From Dictyostelium discoideum (Eukaryota), in assembly GCA_000004695.1 (NCBI GenBank), contig CM000152.2, positions 3,968,001 to 4,032,000 on the forward strand: a DNA stretch of 64,000 bases. Reading direction: 5' to 3'. Within the stretch, counting starts at the first letter, position 1, and each line of letters begins with the position of its first letter. Under the pieces are notes generated by a model. The model was not told the DNA's origin, did not search any database, and was given only the letters and a program-made list of their open reading frames with translations. The translations under genes were made by a program, and so were the position numbers. Of this stretch, positions 9,253-18,736 are shown piece by piece.

Positions 9253-9637
9253 AAAAGGTTTATCTGAAAAAATAAAAAAAAAAAAAAAATGGATAATAGA
9301 TAGAAAAAACCATCAATCATTTTTAAAAACCATTTTTTTTATTTTTTTTTTTTTTAAAATAAAATTTATTGTAAAATAACCCAAATCCATTTTTCAAGTA
9401 AAAATTTTAAAAAAAAATTTTGGAAAAAAAAAAAAAAAAAAAAAAATATCTTTTTTTTAAATTAAATTTTGAAATTTTTTATCAAAAAAAAGAAATCAAT
9501 AAACCAATCAATTATTTATTTATTTATTTATTATTTATTATTTGTATATTATTTGTATAATAAATTAACTTTTAAAAATTTATTTTTAGAAAATCGAACC
9601 AAACAAAAAAAAAAAAAAAAATAAAATAAAATAAGAA
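7560..9637. other. About 2.1 kb AT-only intergenic region with no ORFs, dense in A(n)/T(n) homopolymers (several over 30 nt) and a short (GT)7
   Basis: Read directly. The longest runs are A38 near 8881..8930 and A-rich 8575..8640; (GT)n at 7241..7255. Confidence 0.7.
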
Positions 9638-9876
9638 ATGTCAGCAACTAAATGTGAAGAGTAAGAAATTAAAAAAAAAAAAAAATATCAAACCAAAAAA
9701 GGAAAACAAGAAAAAAATAGAAATAAAAAAAAAAAACTTTATATTTCCTTGGAAAACAAATTTTTAATTTATTAATAATTTTTTTTGAAAAAAAAAAAAA
9801 AAAAAAAAAAAAAACTTCAAACAAATGTACCAAAACAGTGTATCCACTTGAAGCCTTTTCAGTTTTAGGTTTGATG

Positions 9877-9907
<31 letters not shown>

Positions 9908-10912
9908 AAAAAAAAAAAAAAAATTTTCTTTTTTTTTTTCCAGATTTTCACACTTTTGGAAACTAAATTAACATTTATTTTATAATTTAATTTTTAATTA
10001 ATTAATTAATTAATCAGGTAAATCATGGCACAAAATTTGTTTTAAATGCAGTGTCGCAGAATGTAGACAAGTATTAAACTTAAAAACAGTTCAACCACAT
10101 AATCCAACTGGTAAAATCTATTGTGCAAATCATTATCCAAAAGAAAAAGCTACCTCTGTTGCCGATTCATTATCAGTTGTTAATGCAACCAATGCACCAA
10201 AAGTAGCATTAACTAATACTCAAGTTAAACCAGTTGGTAAGTTTTATTTATTATTATTATTATTATTTTTTTTTTTTTTTTCTATAATTATTAATTTTTT
10301 ATTTTTTTAAAATTTCATTTTTTAATAAATTGAATACAGATGCACCAACTCAAACTGCTGATACAATGCAATTAAATAATGCTAGAAGTGCACCAAAAGT
10401 AGCATTAACTAATAATCAAGTTAAACCAGTTGGTAAGTATTTTTTTTTTTTTTTTTTTTTAAATCAAACTCCCCTCCCCCTTGGAAAAGTTATAAATTTT
10501 TTTTTTTTTTTTTTTTTTTAACTACACAGATGCACCAATCCAAACTGCTGATACTATGGCATTAAATAATGCAAAGAATGCACCAAAAACAGGTTTGGTT
10601 AATCAACAAATTAGAGATGTTGATGCTCCATCACAAACTGCTGATACTATGGCATTGAATAATGCAAAGAATGCACCAAAAACAGGTTTGGTTAATCAAC
10701 AAATTTACAATGTTGATGCACCAACACAAGCTACCGATACTATTGCATTAAATAATGCTAAAAATGCTCCAAAGACTAATTTAGTAAATCATCAAATTTA
10801 TGATGTAGATGCACCAAGCCAAACCATAGATTTGAAATTACAAAATGCATTAAACGCACCAACCCTTCCAAAAGTTAATAATGAAATTAAAGCCATCGAA
10901 AGAAATGTTTAA
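9638..10912 (+). CDS. LASP-like protein: N-terminal LIM domain followed by about 5.5 tandem 31-35 aa nebulin-like repeats, with no SH3 domain. Exons 9638..9660, ~9825..9868 (acceptor uncertain), 10018..10236, 10340..10432, 10530..10912.
   Basis: Spliced translation: MSATKCEE|CTKTVYPLEAFSVLG|KSWHKICFKCSVAECRQVLNLKTVQPHNPTGKIYCANHYPKEKATSVADSLSVVNATNAPKVALTNTQVKPVG|DAPTQTADTMQLNNARSAPKVALTNNQVKPVG|DAPIQTADTMALNNAKNAPKTGLVNQQIRDV DAPSQTADTMALNNAKNAPKTGLVNQQIYNV DAPTQATDTIALNNAKNAPKTNLVNHQIYDV DAPSQTIDLKLQNALNAPTLPKVNNEIKAIERNV*. The LIM part aligns closely with the LASP-1 LIM domain (MNPNCARCGKIVYPTEK..WHKACFHCETC..LNMKNY..KPYCNAHYPK). Donors GTAAGA (9661), GTTTGA (9869), GTAAGT (10237, 10433); acceptors at 10016-17, 10338-39, 10528-29. 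The last three introns are phase 1 and sit exactly at repeat boundaries (..KPVG|DAP..). Confidence 0.6.
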
Positions 10913-10932: not shown

Positions 10933-10989
10933 TTTTTATAAAATAAAATAAAATAAAATAAAATAAAATAAAATAAAATAAAATAAAAT
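10933..10989. repeat. (AAAAT)n pentanucleotide microsatellite
   Basis: aaaataaaataaaat... repeated about 11 times immediately 3' of the LIM gene. Confidence 0.8.
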
Positions 10990-11791
10990 TTTATAGTTAA
11001 ATTTTTAACCTTACACTTTTTTTGGATTTTACAAATTTTTACTTTAATTGGAAAAAAGTGATTTATTTTTAAAATATTCCTAGTCAGTAAAATATTAAAT
11101 TATAAATAAATAAATAAATAAATTAAATTAAAACTTTTCCTTTTTTATTTTATTTTATTTTACTTATAATTAAAAATAATTAATATTCAATGTTTCTTAA
11201 TTAACATTAATATAGTTTTTTAAATAGTTTATACAAGGAAAATAAAAAAAAAAAATAATAATTATAATAATATTTGTTGATGATCAAATTGATTATAATT
11301 TTTAAAAATAAAAAAAAAAAAAAGATAAATATTATAATTAAAATGTTATACCCCACAATCATTTTTTTTAAAAATAATAATTAATTTAATCAAAAAATTT
11401 TTTTTTTTTTTTTTTTTTTTGTGTTTGCGAAAATATTTTTTTTTTATTTTTTTTTTTTTTTGGCAATAGGTAAATAAATTAATTTTATTAATAAATTTTT
11501 TTTAACCAATCTAATTAGACTAATAGTAAACAATCAAATTTGATTAATTTATATAGGGAAAAAAAAGAAAAAAAAAAAAAAAAAAATAAATTTTTTTGGT
11601 GTTTAAAAAAATTCTTGATGTTCACAAAAAAAAAAAAAAAATTAAAAAAATTAAAAAAAAAATAAAAAAAATAAAATTTTTAAATTAAATTTTTTTTCAA
11701 ATTTTTTTTTTTTATTTTTTTTTTTTTATTAATTTTTTAACTTCACTCACATAACTTATTTATATATATATATATAACATTTAAATATAAA

Positions 11792-14007: not shown

Positions 14008-14871
14008 ATGATACAAACAACATTTTCATCATATTTAGCAGAATCTTGGAATAAAATTGGAGAAATTAAAATTTTAAAACCAGGTGGTATGACATTAGAT
14101 TTTTCGATTGATGCATTAAATTTAACGATTCCAAAATGTAAAATCAATGAAAATATAAAGATATTGGATGTTGGGGCTGGGTTTGGTGTTTTATCAATTT
14201 ATGCATCAACTAATTATCCAAATAGTGAAATTATTGCAACAGATATTTCAAAATGTATGATTGATTCATTAAATTATTCAATTCAAGGAAACCAAATAAA
14301 GAATGTCACTGCCAAAGTAATGGATGGCCAAAGTATGCCAGAGCTACAATCTGAATCATTCGATTACTGTTTTTCAATGTTTGGTTTGATTTATTTCCCT
14401 GATAGATTAAAAAGTCTTAAAGAGATGTACAGATTATTAAAATCAAATAATAATTCAAAAGTTTCAATTGGTAGTTGGCAATCTGATGCTTTCTTACCAA
14501 TGGTATTAGAGAAAACTTATGAAAAAGTAACAGTTGGTAGTAGTGGTGGTTTGAAATTGACATCAAAACAACCAGCTTTATCATTAGATGATAAAGTTTT
14601 ATTCAAGAGTGAATTGGAACAAGCTGGTTTTAAAAATGTTGAAATTCACAGTATTGGTCATCCATTAGAGGTAACAACTGAAAGTTTATCAAATTATCTT
14701 AGACCCGAAAACCCAGTTGTTGATGATTTCTTTAAACTTATTGGTGATGATAATATTAATAAATTTAAAGAAACTTTTATTAACCTAGTCTTAGAATTAT
14801 TTCCAAAAAATGAAAATGGTTTTCATATTGTTCCATGGAATTCTTATATTGGTATTGGTGAAAAATTATAG
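14008..14871 (+). CDS. Class I SAM-dependent methyltransferase (Methyltransf_11/25-like), intronless, 287 aa; paralog 1 of a tandem pair.
   Basis: SAM-binding motif I ILDVGAGFGVLSIYAS, followed by an acidic post-I motif (ATDISKCM). Conserved C-terminal block FDYCFSMFGLIYFPDRLKSLKEMYRLLK. Single uninterrupted ORF. Confidence 0.7.
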   Translation: MIQTTFSSYLAESWNKIGEIKILKPGGMTLDFSIDALNLTIPKCKINENIKILDVGAGFGVLSIYASTNYPNSEIIATDISKCMIDSLNYSIQGNQIKNVTAKVMDGQSMPELQSESFDYCFSMFGLIYFPDRLKSLKEMYRLLKSNNNSKVSIGSWQSDAFLPMVLEKTYEKVTVGSSGGLKLTSKQPALSLDDKVLFKSELEQAGFKNVEIHSIGHPLEVTTESLSNYLRPENPVVDDFFKLIGDDNINKFKETFINLVLELFPKNENGFHIVPWNSYIGIGEKL

Positions 14872-15102: not shown

Positions 15103-15966
15103 ATGTCAATTAATTCAACATTTTCATCATATAAATCAGAAGGTTGGGATAAATTATCAGATTCAACACTTTTAAAAATTGGTGGACCAACAGAACCATT
15201 TTCAATTGATGCACTAAATTTAACGATTCCAAAAGAGAAATTGAATGAAAAGATAAGAATATTAGATATTGCAGCAGGTGTTGGTAATTTAACAATTCCA
15301 GCAAGTAGACAATTCCCAAATTCAGAGATTGTTGCAACTGATTATTCAAAATGTATGATTGATTCATTGAATTTAATAATTGAGCAAAATAAAAATAATA
15401 TTAAAAATGTTAAAACTCTAATTGTTGATGGTCAAAATATGGTAGAGATCGAATCTGAATCATTCGATTACTGTTTTTCAATGTTTGGTTTAATTTATTT
15501 CCCTGATAGGTTATCAGGTATGAAAGAGATGTATAGAATTTTAAAATCAAATAATCAATCACGTACTTCAATTGGTAGTTGGCAATCTGATGCTTTCTTA
15601 CCCTCATTATTAGAGAAAACTTATGAACAAGTAACAAGTGGTAGTGGTGGTGGTTTGAAATTAACATCAAAACAACCAGCTTTATCATTAGATGATAAAG
15701 TTTTGTTTAAGAGTGAATTGGAACAAGCTGGTTTTAAAAATGTTGTAATTCATAGTGTTAAACATATAATTAAAATCAATGATTTAGAACCATTATTATC
15801 ACCTAAAAATCCAATTGTTGATGATTTCTTTAAATTAATAAATTATGAAAATATTGATAAATTTAAAGAAACTTTTAAATCAATTGCAAATTCATTATAT
15901 AAAAAAGATGAAAATGGTAATTATTTATCTGAATGGAATTGTTTTATTGGTATTGGCGAAAAATAA
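15103..15966 (+). CDS. Class I SAM-dependent methyltransferase, intronless, 287 aa; paralog 2 of the tandem pair, roughly 55-60% identical to 14008..14871.
   Basis: ILDIAAGVGNLTIPAS motif I. FDYCFSMFGLIYFPDRLSGMKEMYRILKSNN and SIGSWQSDAFLP..LEKTYE..GGLKLTSKQPALSLDDKVLFKSELEQAGFKNV are shared near-verbatim with the upstream paralog. Confidence 0.7.
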   Translation: MSINSTFSSYKSEGWDKLSDSTLLKIGGPTEPFSIDALNLTIPKEKLNEKIRILDIAAGVGNLTIPASRQFPNSEIVATDYSKCMIDSLNLIIEQNKNNIKNVKTLIVDGQNMVEIESESFDYCFSMFGLIYFPDRLSGMKEMYRILKSNNQSRTSIGSWQSDAFLPSLLEKTYEQVTSGSGGGLKLTSKQPALSLDDKVLFKSELEQAGFKNVVIHSVKHIIKINDLEPLLSPKNPIVDDFFKLINYENIDKFKETFKSIANSLYKKDENGNYLSEWNCFIGIGEK

Positions 15967-16593: not shown

Positions 16594-18192
16594 ATGATCA
16601 AAAAAAATAAATTACTAGTTTTAATAATTTTAAATTTTTTAATAAATTCTATTTGTAAGTAATAATAGAAAAAAAAAAAATATTAATAATAATAATTTAA
16701 TTAATTTTTTATTTTTATTTATTTTATTTAAAAAGATTCTGATAGACCATTAATCAATTATATTGAACCATTAACTAGAAATGATAATAAATTATCAGTG
16801 TTTGGTAGATTTTTTGGAGAGAAATTACAAGATGTTAAAGTTGAAATCGATGGTAAACCATATAAAATAAGTGAATGGAGTAATTCAAGTTTTGAAGTAA
16901 CTTTACAACCACCAAATCCAAAGCAATCAAAAATTAAAGTTACAACACCAATTAATTCTGTTGAGAAGGAGATTTACTTTTTAAATGAAAATTGTTTAGG
17001 AATTGATGTTTGTAATGGGCATGGAATATGCATTAAAAATAGTACAGAATGTGTATGTAATGAACCATGGTCTGGTAAAGATTGCTCCATAATCACTGGC
17101 GAATCTATGATAGAGTTAGTTGATAAACCTAAAGTTTACACATCAACAAAATTAAATATTTTTAAAATTCCTGAAATTGAAAATATTAATTTTAACACTA
17201 GTTTTGGATTAGTATTAAAAGAGTATACTAAGAATGATATAATTCTTAACACTTATTTATTAACGCCCTCTATTCAATATGGGAGTATAAAAGGACCAGA
17301 TTTACAAGTTTACAGATACAGAACCAATACATTAATATCTTCGTCAGATCATTCATTCAATTGTGACATCACTCTAACTCATTATCAATCTAATCAAACT
17401 AAAAGTTTCTATAATCAATATATTAATGAATTAAAAGATTCATTTGCATTGAGTGTAATAATTAATAATTTCATACCAATTTCACCAACTAATAAATTAA
17501 CATTATTCATTTATCCAATGATAAAATCAAAGAAATCATTTGGTGGTAAATTAAGTACAATTGTCAATGATAATAATAATAATAATAAAATTGATGAAAA
17601 TGATGATGGTCAATACATTAATGGTACAACAAGTATTAAAATGTCAATTGGTACTCAAAAATTAAGAATTAATCTTTATAATTTTGGTTTATTTTCTCAA
17701 AAATTTACAACTTTTAATACTTCAATTGTTGAAATTTTTAATAATACAAATAATATAAATAATACTAATAATAGTGATAGTAGTGATAATAGAGTTATTG
17801 ATAATGATATTTATTCTATAATTTCAATAACTTCAAATTCATCAAAATATATTTATTTTAATGCAGATTTTTATCCATATTTGGATGATTCTGAAAATGT
17901 AGATAGTTCTGATAAATTAACTTTATTTAGTGACGAAGAGAGTGGTAGTAGTGATAGTATTAGTAGTAGTAGTGGTAGTGGTAGCAGTAGCAGTAGTAGC
18001 AGTGATAATAATACAAGGAATATTATTGATGATAGTAAACATAATTTAACACCAACTCAAAATATTACTACCGAAGTTAATCATGAAAATCATCAAAATG
18101 AAAGTAATAGTAGTAGTAGTATTGGAAATAAATTACCAATTTCGATAATAACTTATTTTGGCCCTGTTTTTATTTTTTGGAAGTTAATTTGA
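16594..18192 (+). CDS. Secreted or membrane protein with a signal peptide, an IPT/TIG-like domain, an EGF-like domain, a Ser/Asn-rich region and a hydrophobic C-terminus. Exons 16594..16654 and 16736..18192.
   Basis: Exon 1 encodes MIKKNKLLVLIILNFLINSI (signal peptide), donor GTAAGT at 16655, acceptor AAAAG at 16734-35 (phase 1). IPT-like: INYIEPLTRNDNKLSVFGRFFGEKLQDVKVEIDGKPYKISEWSNSSFEVTLQPP. EGF-like: CLGIDVCNGHGICIKNSTECVCNEPWSGKDCS. C-terminus LPISIITYFGPVFIFWKLI (TM or GPI signal). The architecture resembles Dictyostelium Tgr/IPT-EGF surface proteins. Confidence 0.65.
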
Positions 18193-18736
18193 AACCTTTC
18201 CAAAAATAAAAATAAAAATATAAATAAAAATTTCATTACCGAATTAAAAACCTATTCCAGTATTTCATTTGTTTTCAGATATGAAAGAAACAATCGGTGA
18301 TGTCGAACTATATTTATAAATTTATTAATAAAAATAAAAAAAGGGAGTATTTTTTTTTTTTTTTTTTTTGTAACCCATTTTTTTTGTAACCCATTTTTGG
18401 AAAATTTAATAAAGATTTATTACTTTTAAAATATGTTTTGTTTTTTTTTTTTTTTTTTAATTTATTTCATTTTTTAAATTCCCAAAAAAGAGAACAGTGT
18501 TAAAACAAATGTTTTTTTTATTTTTAATTTTTTATTTTTAATTTTTAATTTTTTATTTTTATTTTTTATTTTTAATTTTTTTTTTTTGAACAAAAATTTT
18601 TGAAAAATTAATTTTTTATTTTTTTGAAACAAAATTTTAAAACAAAGCAAGTTTGTATTTGTGTATATATATGATTATATAAATATCAATTTTTTGGTTT
18701 TCTATTTTTTATATATATATATTTTTTTATTTATTT

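Follow-up and report, generated by a model that had tools for sequence, protein, structure and literature searches.

A Dictyostelium LIM protein gene with a LASP-like N-terminal module and six tandem repeats of a putative amoebozoan type

Introduction

[quoted passage not shown] 2012), and the origin of this class has been placed in Holozoa (PMC3305314). In Lasp-2, F-actin binding requires the LIM domain together with the first repeat (PMC2761545). The LIM proteins of Dictyostelium have all been assigned to the CRP class (PMC3305314). Among them, LimE is composed of a LIM domain, a glycine-rich segment with two repeats, and a C-terminal coiled coil; a fragment that lacks the coil (LIM plus repeats) is the standard in vivo marker of F-actin in Dictyostelium (PMC13064307, PMC8523838).

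The window analyzed here is a stretch of 64,000 nucleotides (23% GC) from Dictyostelium discoideum (GCA_000004695.1, contig CM000152.2, positions 3,968,001 to 4,032,000). It contains a real, protein-coding gene of a Dictyostelium species, with five exons. A sequence-only reading of this DNA had taken the product to be a LASP-like protein with a LIM domain followed by nebulin repeats. The explanation that we favor, and consider reasonably probable, is that the gene encodes a 253-aa cytoskeletal LIM protein with a LASP-related LIM domain and tail and six amoebozoan repeats of 31 aa, that the repeat array has grown by duplication, and that one exon junction is affected by a base difference at position 9824.

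Gene structure

The joined exons form an open reading frame of 762 nt (253 aa). The neighbors on either side are a gene for a 651-aa product and psmD12 (RPN5). The features, in window coordinates, are as follows.

Exon 1, 9638..9660, + strand: ATG start, 7.67 codons (MSATKCE and the first two bases of E8); first LIM Cys
Intron 1, 9661..9824, + strand: 164 nt, 88% AT; donor GTAAGA; acceptor AA in the window
Exon 2, 9825..9868, + strand: last base of E8, CTKTVYPLEAFSVL, and the first base of G23; second Cys and VYPxE motif
Intron 2, 9869..10017, + strand: phase 1, within the LIM domain (VL/GKSWHK); donor GTTTGA, acceptor CAG
Exon 3, 10018..10236, + strand: remaining part of the LIM domain (ends at K64, about 10142), LASP-like tail HYPKEKATSVADS, repeat 0 (aa 64-94), then V95 and D96 (first base only)
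Intron 3, 10237..10339, + strand: phase 1, GTAAGT..ACAG; KPV/DAP junction between repeats 0 and 1
Exon 4, 10340..10432, + strand: 93 nt, symmetric 1-1; exactly one 31-aa unit (repeat 1)
Intron 4, 10433..10529, + strand: phase 1, GTAAGT..ACAG; KPV/DAP junction between repeats 1 and 2; contains a C-rich island, CTCCCCTCCCCC
Exon 5, 10530..10912, + strand: repeats 2-5 with a 93-nt period; stop TAA at 10910-10912
Repeat bounds in exon 5 (rough), + strand: to 10618, 10619-10711, 10712-10804, and 10805-10909, 93-nt period

The exons are 67% AT, and introns 2-4 range from approximately 80 to 94% AT. Introns 2, 3, and 4 are all GT..AG. They are also all phase 1, as the sequence-only reading had noted in proposing three consecutive phase-1 introns at KPVG/DAP repeat boundaries. 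Only introns 3 and 4 lie at repeat junctions, where they split an Asp codon (G/gtaagt...acag/AT); the 'G' of KPVG is the first base of this codon and not a glycine, and intron 2 interrupts the LIM domain rather than a repeat boundary. The gene model itself was correct, given the 253-aa frame, the N-terminus of an orthologue, and a second assembly. The orthologue, from Polysphondylium violaceum (P0001), is 59% identical, with the first 18 aa the same, and starts with the same MSATKCEECTKTVYPLEA; because of this identical N-terminus, the join between exons 1 and 2 is correct at the protein level. In assembly GCA_054883475.1, which is 99.6% identical to the window, the gene call at the corresponding place yields a product of 253 aa, with identical exons and all four introns GT..AG. 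Further orthologues were found in Acytostelium and Tieghemostelium; the matches of the homology search included no protein from either D. discoideum or D. purpureum.

The acceptor of intron 1

In the window, intron 1 ends in ..caaacaa/ATGTACC, with an A at 9824 and thus without an AG. No AG occurs between 9722 and 9836, and no alternative AG preserves the frame: use of the sole downstream one (9837-9838) gives GAT GTA TCC ACT TGA, and hence a stop. Where the window reads CAAACAA/ATG, GCA_054883475.1 reads CAAACAG/ATG, so that the junction of exons 1 and 2 cannot be closed in the window because of one base, A for G at 9824. The sequence-only reading had made the join acaa/ATGTACC and offered a non-canonical acceptor, a sequence error, or a slightly different exon 2 to account for it; the join stands, and the missing AG comes down to one A/G difference between the window and a near-identical assembly rather than to any peculiarity in the biology of the gene.

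The window and GCA_054883475.1 differ by 13 substitutions in 20.9 kb, 10 of which fall inside 9257-10494, all of these in non-coding, homopolymer-rich DNA. This clustering points to the quality of the local sequence and not to mutation. At 9824, the A is most likely an error, arising where the source sequence is homopolymer-rich and poorly resolved, or otherwise a splice-site mutation specific to the strain. If the A were real in the source strain, the allele would be a splice-defective pseudogene or hypomorph, or the intron would be of a GT-AA type. Such a reading of the junction fits the absence of a usable AG in the window, as well as a second difference in a splice signal, the intron 2 donor (GTTTGA in the window, GTATGA in GCA_054883475.1), in which an A to T change at +3 (position 9871) would likewise weaken splicing. 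It is nevertheless somewhat unlikely, as the concentration of 10 of the 13 substitutions in non-coding DNA, with the exons untouched, is a pattern of sequence quality, and GCA_054883475.1 is canonical at both splice sites. A single error or SNP in an acceptor can thereby conceal a conserved gene from annotation.

The LIM domain and its tail

A LIM domain was defined as C-x2-C-x16-23-H-x2-C-x2-C-x2-C-x16-21-C-x2-(C/H/D) with a score above the gathering cut-off. The Pfam LIM search (PF00412) that the sequence-only reading had proposed matches residues 6-64 (E=1.1e-9; 38.8 bits against a cut-off of 22.9), with the full set of eight zinc ligands (C6, C9, H27, C30, C33, C38, C58, and H61) and one deviation in spacing, C-x4-C at ligands 5-6. 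The ligands are invariant in 24 family members, and in the AF2 model of an orthologue the LIM domain has a pLDDT of 87-95.

The domain is followed by a 13-residue tail, HYPKxxxTxVAD[ST]. A BLASTP alignment with human LASP1 (44% identity over 68 aa, 63 bits) reaches VAD[ST], the start of nebulin repeat 1, and the distance from the last ligand to the Asp that starts the repeat is 11 residues in both proteins (H61-D72 here, H56-D67 in LASP1). By phmmer, LASP1 proteins score 53-54 bits, compared with 33.5 bits for the best solved LIM domain outside the LASP class. Without the tail, the LIM domain scores 32-43 bits against LASP (a panel of vertebrate proteins only) and 27-34 against CRP/MLP, a modest lead of about 9 bits. 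The tail on its own aligns with LASP by hhalign with a score of 22.9 (P=4.3e-5), whereas permuted tails score 7.1+/-1.7 with a maximum of 13.6, and none of the 250 permutations reaches the observed score. When H.PK is removed, the T.VAD[ST] match still has P=0.024; the similarity to LASP ends after D-S/T. A profile of the LASP LIM domain plus tail, run over a panel of 166 LIM proteins, places repeat-bearing proteins in the top 13 positions (median best-domain score of 50.5 bits, vs. 36.7 for the other LIM proteins of the panel). An exhaustive profile search was uninformative as a LIM-class ranking for LASP, as its best 150 places are filled by multi-LIM proteins through their summed scores, with the single-LIM LASPs below. 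The LASP comparisons argue for a specific relationship of the N-terminal module (LIM plus tail) to its counterpart in LASP, as had been suggested from the HYPK tail.

The protein could instead be a LIM adaptor of a generic CRP type, whose disordered tail evolves fast, is specific to the lineage, and has no specific actin-binding role. Its likeness to LASP would then be convergence or a matter of shared ancestral LIM features. The literature assignment of Dictyostelium LIM proteins to the CRP class agrees with this, as do the top solved-structure matches, which are CRP1, CRP2, and MLP. However, LASP scores 20 bits above the CRPs once the tail is included, and the last ligand with the residues after it reads His and x-P-K, the LASP pattern, instead of Cys and GPKGxG; at least 90% of family members have His at this ligand, and no glycine-rich motif follows it. 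With the repeats described below also taken into account, a CRP-type adaptor is quite improbable.

The tandem repeats and their family

Six 31-aa repeats follow, at residues 64-94, 95-125, 126-156, 157-187, 188-218, and 219 to about 249, and the protein ends inside the repeat array; five or six modules had been predicted. Their consensus is ..P..Q.aD(S)M...NAkNAPKv.tVN.Q.RG. Across 98 units aligned from 25 proteins, the best conserved positions are A21 (96%), A24 (94%), R39 (88%), N35 (85%), and the P and K (84% each). AF2 modeling of the orthologue gives the repeats a pLDDT below 50, with helices of 4-7 residues over the NA.NA part. This predicted disorder would suit the CRP-type alternative, but the repeat positions are conserved in both Dictyostelia and Discosea, and are therefore not drifting low complexity.

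For this analysis, a family was defined by a LIM domain ending in C-x2-H-x-P-K, a tail T-x-V-x-D-S, and at least two repeats of the form '..D(S)M...NA.NAPK..VN.Q.RG'. The window protein carries this motif, all six of its repeats are matched by the family model, and its full-length E-values against relatives run from 1e-73 to 1e-8. Members of the family come from dictyostelids as well as from discosean amoebae (Stenamoeba, Sappinia, Gocevia, and Pellita), and the repeat type is also present in the apusomonad Thecamonas. The best 150 of the exhaustive profile search, which did help to uncover new architectures, include 140 new representatives, and one or more such repeats are present in 47 of these. 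Fusions of LIM-repeat units with AIF-1-like EF-hands and with SH3 domains, both of them domains of the actin cytoskeleton, also occur, and such partners further speak against a generic CRP-type adaptor. The Thecamonas protein has the order LIM-repeat-LIM-repeat-SH3 and is collinear with human LASP1 through its C-terminal ..PANYVxxI (91 bits, E=2e-25). Database proteins of LimE architecture (P0254, P0284, and P0228) are matched by the family repeat model as well. As no more than a lead, a query that we take to approximate the LimE sequence scored 239 bits with P0254 and 88 bits with the window protein. By its motifs, the gene belongs to a family of LIM proteins with this repeat (the NAPK repeat). 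The family extends across Amoebozoa, and proteins of LimE architecture are its relatives.

Relation to nebulin repeats

A Pfam scan of the protein and 23 relatives (E<=10) returned LIM and chance matches only, with no Nebulin, WH2, or other repeat family and, for the window protein, no SH3, whose absence had been remarked on from the sequence. None of the 24 members matches Pfam Nebulin (PF00880), with which LASP1 as a positive control scores 74.6 bits, and the Thecamonas protein has no match to it at E<=0.01. An alignment of the 98 family repeats with 143 nebulin repeats gives a probability of 0.8% (hhalign, P=0.07), and a model of nebulin repeats derived from LASP reaches no more than 0.1 bits with the family members and finds nothing in Thecamonas. 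A nebulin identity is disfavored by these non-significant profiles, by the period of 31 aa (93 nt) rather than 35, and by the absence of the conserved Tyr of the SDxxYK type. The sequence-only reading had given module lengths of up to 35 aa and equated an 'IY' in the repeats with SDxxYK; among the 98 family repeats, however, the position in question, a Tyr in two repeats of the window protein, is Arg in 88%, Lys in 8%, and Tyr in 3%. Its nebulin claim fails because no significant Nebulin profile match was found, an outcome that it had itself named as counting against the claim. As far as the profiles can tell, the repeats show no detectable nebulin character, they appear to be an amoebozoan repeat type, and a nebulin identity cannot be shown.

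Highly diverged nebulin repeats are nonetheless an alternative to be weighed. The protein would then be a true LASP/nebulin member whose SH3 domain was lost or never present, and each repeat would be predicted to bind one actin subunit, as in nebulin. The first repeat does begin at the exact LASP position (T-x-V-A-D-S/T vs. T-x-V-A-D-T-P-E in LASP), where the short T.VAD[ST] match still has P=0.024, and the repeat type occurs in a LIM...SH3 protein collinear with LASP1, that of Thecamonas. Moreover, in 120 of 120 LASP proteins the best match of the family repeat model is the N-terminal half of nebulin repeat 2, albeit a tiny one (2-4 bits, per-sequence E of about 0.002-0.01). Against this stand the profile results above, the loss of similarity past D-S/T, the 31-aa period, and the unconserved Tyr, which together make a nebulin identity unlikely. 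The preferred reading, an amoebozoan repeat type, would add an undescribed type, namely a conserved repeat of 31-33 residues without any Pfam match.

Growth of the repeat array

The 93-nt copies in exon 5 (DNA repeat family D1) are 78-89% identical. The end of an exon together with the start of the following intron is also duplicated (10160-10265 and 10356-10461, 79% identical). In P. violaceum, phase-1 introns that cut the repeat at another position flank a 99-nt 1-1 exon. The idea that homologous phase-1 introns are a footprint of duplication is borne out by the duplicated exon/intron segments and the 93-nt 1-1 exon, and the array has probably grown by tandem duplication of genomic segments bearing a phase-1 intron.

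Proposed function and evolutionary meaning

The protein is probably actin-binding, by analogy with its relatives. Judging from these relatives and from its architecture only, its function is most likely binding to the side of F-actin. [quoted passage not shown] In the unbound state, the further repeats may be disordered apart from a short helix in each over '.M...NA.NA'; they could lie along the filament, where they would add avidity. Hence, the protein would decorate or stabilize dynamic actin filaments.

The presence of a LASP-like LIM domain and tail in amoebozoans, along with the apusomonad SH3 fusion, suggests that the N-terminal LASP module goes back to the root of Amorphea; the entire LASP architecture possibly dates to the same root. 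More tentatively, the NAPK repeat may share descent with the nebulin repeat, as its counterpart in amoebozoans and apusomonads. The LASP architecture (LIM, tail, and actin-binding repeat, with or without SH3) would then stem from the ancestor of Amoebozoa and Opisthokonta rather than from Holozoa, and LimE would be a relative of LASP with nebulin-like actin binding. Once learned, the actin-binding mode of the repeat would explain a widely used F-actin probe (LimE), and it could reveal a second repeat of the filament-ruler type, either independent or ancestral.

Comparison with LimE, LASP, and CRP proteins

LimE-like proteins, compared here through database proteins of the published architecture, share with the window protein a single N-terminal LIM domain, its C-x2-H-x-P-K ending, and the T-x-V-x-D-S tail. 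Their repeats take the form '.LD.....A..APK' and are recognized by the same repeat model. However, the window protein has six repeats, while LimE and LimE-like proteins have two or three; the second half of the repeat reads 'V.tVN.Q.R(G)' in the window protein and '..AEGLG.VQKGTG' in the LimE-like proteins; and the window protein lacks the acidic or coiled-coil C-terminal tail of LimE.

With LASP-1 and LASP-2, the protein has in common one N-terminal CCHC-CCCH LIM domain, the HYPK-x3-T-x-VAD-S/T tail with equal spacing to the first repeat, and short tandem repeats after the LIM domain; an SH3 domain is also found in the apusomonad relative. On the other hand, its repeats lie outside the nebulin profile, are 31 rather than 35 aa long, and lack the SDxxYK-type Tyr. 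It also has no linker or SH3 domain and has two additional residues between zinc ligands 5 and 6.

CRP1-3/MLP and CRIP are likewise small cytoskeletal LIM proteins, and they provide the top-scoring solved LIM domains (27-34 bits per domain), but they score about 20 bits under LASP when the tail is included. In CRPs, the LIM domain ends in C-x2-C, a glycine-rich GPKGxG follows, and there are usually two LIM domains, whereas the LIM domain of the window protein ends in C-x2-H-Y-P-K and leads into NAPK repeats.

Gene Structure and Intron Positions

The LIM gene lies in typical dictyostelid DNA (window GC content, 23%), and the join of its five exons forms a 762-nt open reading frame encoding 253 a.a.:

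9638-9660 (+), exon 1 of the LIM gene
9825-9868 (+), exon 2 of the LIM gene
10018-10236 (+), exon 3 of the LIM gene
10340-10432 (+), exon 4 of the LIM gene
10530-10912 (+), exon 5 of the LIM gene

The AT content is 67% in the exons, 88% in intron 1, and approximately 80-94% in introns 2-4. The window protein contains one Pfam LIM domain at residues 6-64 (E-value 1.1e-9; 38.8 bits, cut-off 22.9), followed by six tandem 31-residue units, designated repeats 0-5 (64-94, 95-125, 126-156, 157-187, 188-218, and 219 to about 249). The coordinates, LIM domain, repeats, and homologous phase-1 introns described in the sequence-only reading are all borne out by the ORF join, Pfam, and comparison of the repeat DNA; the gene is real, and its uncharacterised product belongs to an amoebozoan family of NAPK-repeat LIM proteins.

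Introns 2-4 share phase 1 and GT..AG ends. That reading had set all three at repeat junctions, which holds for introns 3 and 4 but not for intron 2, which falls inside the LIM domain, where there is no repeat junction. Introns 3 and 4 split an Asp codon at KPV/DAP (G/gtaagt..acag/AT), and the glycine of the proposed "KPVG" does not exist. Introns 3 and 4 occupy the same point in repeats 0/1 and 1/2, exon 4 is symmetric (93 nt) and codes for exactly one repeat, and a 106-nt stretch across the exon 3/intron 3 boundary recurs, at 79% identity, across the boundary of exon 4 and intron 4. Exon 5 holds three full 93-nt copies (78-89% DNA identity), its intron-less repeats 2-4 being the most similar copies. 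In the Polysphondylium violaceum gene (locus L004, 1821-2866), phase-1 introns interrupt the consecutive repeats 0 and 1 just before NAPK and enclose a symmetric 99-nt exon; the T. lacteum orthologue (locus L003, 3001-3743) is interrupted only once, by a phase-0 intron in the LIM domain one codon off intron 2 of the window gene. Judging from these intron positions, intron-carrying segments have been duplicated in tandem, apparently in separate events in different lineages.

Several other features were observed in and around the gene. A C-rich island (CTCCCCTCCCCC, 10470-10481) sits in mid intron 4 amid AT-rich surroundings, and immediately past the stop codon come about ten units of a (TAAAA)n microsatellite (10938-10990). 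On the sense strand (+), five copies of TTGGAAA are spread over the 5' flank (9420), introns 1 (9749), 2 (9956), and 4 (10481), and the 3' flank (11048); this pattern was picked post hoc, and the 64 kb hold 33 matches on both strands, or about 0.8 expected per 1.6 kb. Farther downstream, 14008-14871 and 15103-15966 are tandem paralogues encoding 287-a.a. class I methyltransferases (~78% DNA identity).

The Intron 1 Junction

The intron 1 donor is GTAAGA; in the window the 3' end of the intron reads ..caaacaa/ATGTACC, with no alternative AG in the window sequence that would keep the frame. The exon 1/2 join is nevertheless right at the protein level, because the P. violaceum orthologue starts with the identical N-terminus, MSATKCEECTKTVYPLEA. 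A second NCBI assembly, GCA_054883475.1, carries an exact match to the window ORF 14008-14871 on contig CM142509.1 (6.43 Mb), and a gene with a 253-a.a. product is called there at the place corresponding to the LIM gene. The two assemblies are 99.6% identical over 20.9 kb (CM142509.1 4046550-4067413), and all five LIM-gene exons are identical, but the intron 1 acceptor of GCA_054883475.1 is a canonical CAAACAG/ATGTACC, and the intron 2 donor is GTATGA rather than the GTTTGA of the window. The anomaly at this junction, which had been described as not closable with a canonical AG, comes down to one base, either an artefact or an allele.

The assemblies differ by only 13 substitutions in 20.9 kb. 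Ten of these fall within 9257-10494, all of them non-coding, in the LIM gene's promoter and introns, where long homopolymers abound; the remaining three lie within 40 nt near 18180 (18163-18201). All 11 indels are homopolymer-length differences, with the window longer every time. The clustered substitutions and homopolymer indels suggest that one of the two assemblies is of poor quality locally. It is likely that the source of the window is unreliable in this stretch; a real splice-site mutation is the less likely reading.

A Family of NAPK-Repeat LIM Proteins

A first homology search with the window protein found 24 proteins (E-values 1e-73 to 1e-8), every one with a single LIM domain at the N-terminus and repeats of this kind after it. 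The family is recorded from dictyostelids (Polysphondylium, Acytostelium, Tieghemostelium), discosean amoebae (Stenamoeba, Gocevia, Sappinia, Pellita), and soil, marine, or transcriptome data. With the window units as its basis, a repeat model gathers 98 units from the proteins of this first search, with the consensus ..P..Q.aD(S)M...NAkNAPKv.tVN.Q.RG, in which two alanines (96 and 94%), Pro and Lys (84% each), Asn (85%), and Arg (88%) are conserved. Searching 1.84 billion representatives exhaustively with a profile yielded 123 proteins at E<=1e-30; the top 150 include 140 new representatives, of which 47 have one or more such repeats. The repeat is undescribed, and none of the Pfam families covers it in the window protein or its relatives. 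The AF2 model of an orthologue has a pLDDT of 87-95 in the LIM domain and <50 in the repeats, with helices of 4-7 residues over the ".L.NA.NA" part, which suggests that the repeat region by itself is disordered.

The spacing between zinc ligands 5 and 6 varies in the family alignment from C-x2-C through C-x4-C (window protein) up to C-x8-C, a variable insertion in the second zinc finger that is unusual for LIM domains. Six metagenome or metatranscriptome relatives (P0244, P0248, P0259, P0263, P0265, and P0283) carry AIF-1-like EF-hand pairs, a Pro/Ala/Thr-rich linker, and a LASP-like LIM, an unreported architecture; all but P0263 continue with one NAPK repeat and end in "..QG.KKD.RMTFAPG".

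Comparison with LASP and Nebulin Repeats

The human LASP1 sequence used was identical (100%) to database LASP1 over residues 1-136, and as a control Pfam resolved it into LIM, two Nebulin repeats, and SH3. By BLASTP, LASP1 and the window protein share 44% identity over 68 a.a. (63 bits), in an alignment that spans HYPK(E/Q)..T.VAD(S/T), the start of LASP1 nebulin repeat 1; in both, the Asp lies 11 residues after the last zinc ligand. The window protein scores 53-54 bits with LASP1 proteins (phmmer) vs. 33.5 bits with CRP2, the highest-scoring solved LIM outside the LASP class. The LIM alone gives 32-43 bits with LASP and 27-34 bits with CRP/MLP, and for the LASP1 LIM the top score with a solved relative outside LASP is 45 bits (CRIP). 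When the LIM is excluded, the tails that follow it, 43 from the family and 67 from LASP, align over exactly 13 columns (H~Pk~k~T~Vads / HYPkt~FT~VaDT; hhalign score 22.9, P=4.3e-5), a score reached in 0 of 250 column permutations (7.1+/-1.7, maximum 13.6). Among 166 collected LIM proteins, a vertebrate-derived LASP LIM+tail profile places repeat-bearing proteins in the first 13 positions (median best-domain score 50.5 bits vs. 36.7 for the others). The LASP-like LIM and HYPK tail proposed earlier are upheld by the BLASTP and tail alignments, and the N-terminal module is, at the sequence level and against a vertebrate-only panel, demonstrably and specifically LASP-like.

The repeats, on the other hand, cannot be called nebulin repeats on their sequence, contrary to the original proposal. 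Pfam Nebulin matched none of the 24 family members at E<=10 (LASP1, 74.6 bits), a nebulin model derived from LASP never exceeded 0.1 bits with the family, and the 98 family repeats aligned with 143 LASP nebulin repeats at an hhalign probability of 0.8% (P=0.07, 14 columns). The nebulin period is 35 residues and that of the family 31, and the Tyr that had been equated with nebulin SDxxYK is present in only two window repeats, the family having Arg in 88%. As had been stated, Pfam finds no SH3 domain in the window protein. The family/LASP tail alignment ends directly after D-S/T. Both repeat kinds do open with T/Q-x-(V/A)-D-(S/T), which gives P=0.024 with H.PK removed, and in every LASP protein the family repeat model matches best, at 2-4 bits, on the front half of nebulin repeat 2; this faint similarity is a lead, not a demonstration.

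Predicted Function and Age of the Module

P0254, P0284, P0228, P0230, and other relatives consist of LIM, two or three ".LD.....A..APK..QKGTG" repeats, and an acidic tail. A putative LimE sequence gives 239 bits with P0254, 88 bits with the window protein, and two repeat-model matches, a lead only. The architecture of these relatives equals that published for Dictyostelium LimE, in which the LIM is followed by two repeats within a glycine-rich segment and then by a coiled coil; the LimE fragment without the coil is the standard F-actin marker (PMC13064307; PMC8523838). Lasp-2 binds F-actin through LIM plus the first repeat, and not through LIM alone or the repeats alone (PMC2761545). In other proteins, LIM-repeat units are joined to AIF-1-like EF-hands or to SH3. 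Together, these three lines led us to propose that the window protein binds the side of F-actin: LIM, tail, and repeat 0 would contact the filament, and the five further repeats would add contacts along it.

The LASP class has been dated to the Capsaspora-Metazoa ancestor, and Dictyostelium LIM proteins have been placed under CRP (Koch et al., 2012; PMC3305314). The apusomonad Thecamonas trahens encodes a bridging protein, XP_013760603 (database name "transcription factor lim1," a misnomer), which is arranged as LIM-repeat-LIM-repeat-low complexity-SH3; the family repeat model gives 23 and 15 bits on this protein, and the nebulin model finds nothing. The data suggest that the LASP-type N-terminal module is older than the Capsaspora-Metazoa ancestor, and perhaps LIM-repeat-SH3 as a whole is also older. 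Human LASP1 aligns with XP_013760603 from the LIM to the last residue (91 bits, E=2e-25), the two proteins ending in ..MLPANYVEAI and ..MFPANYVQRI, respectively.
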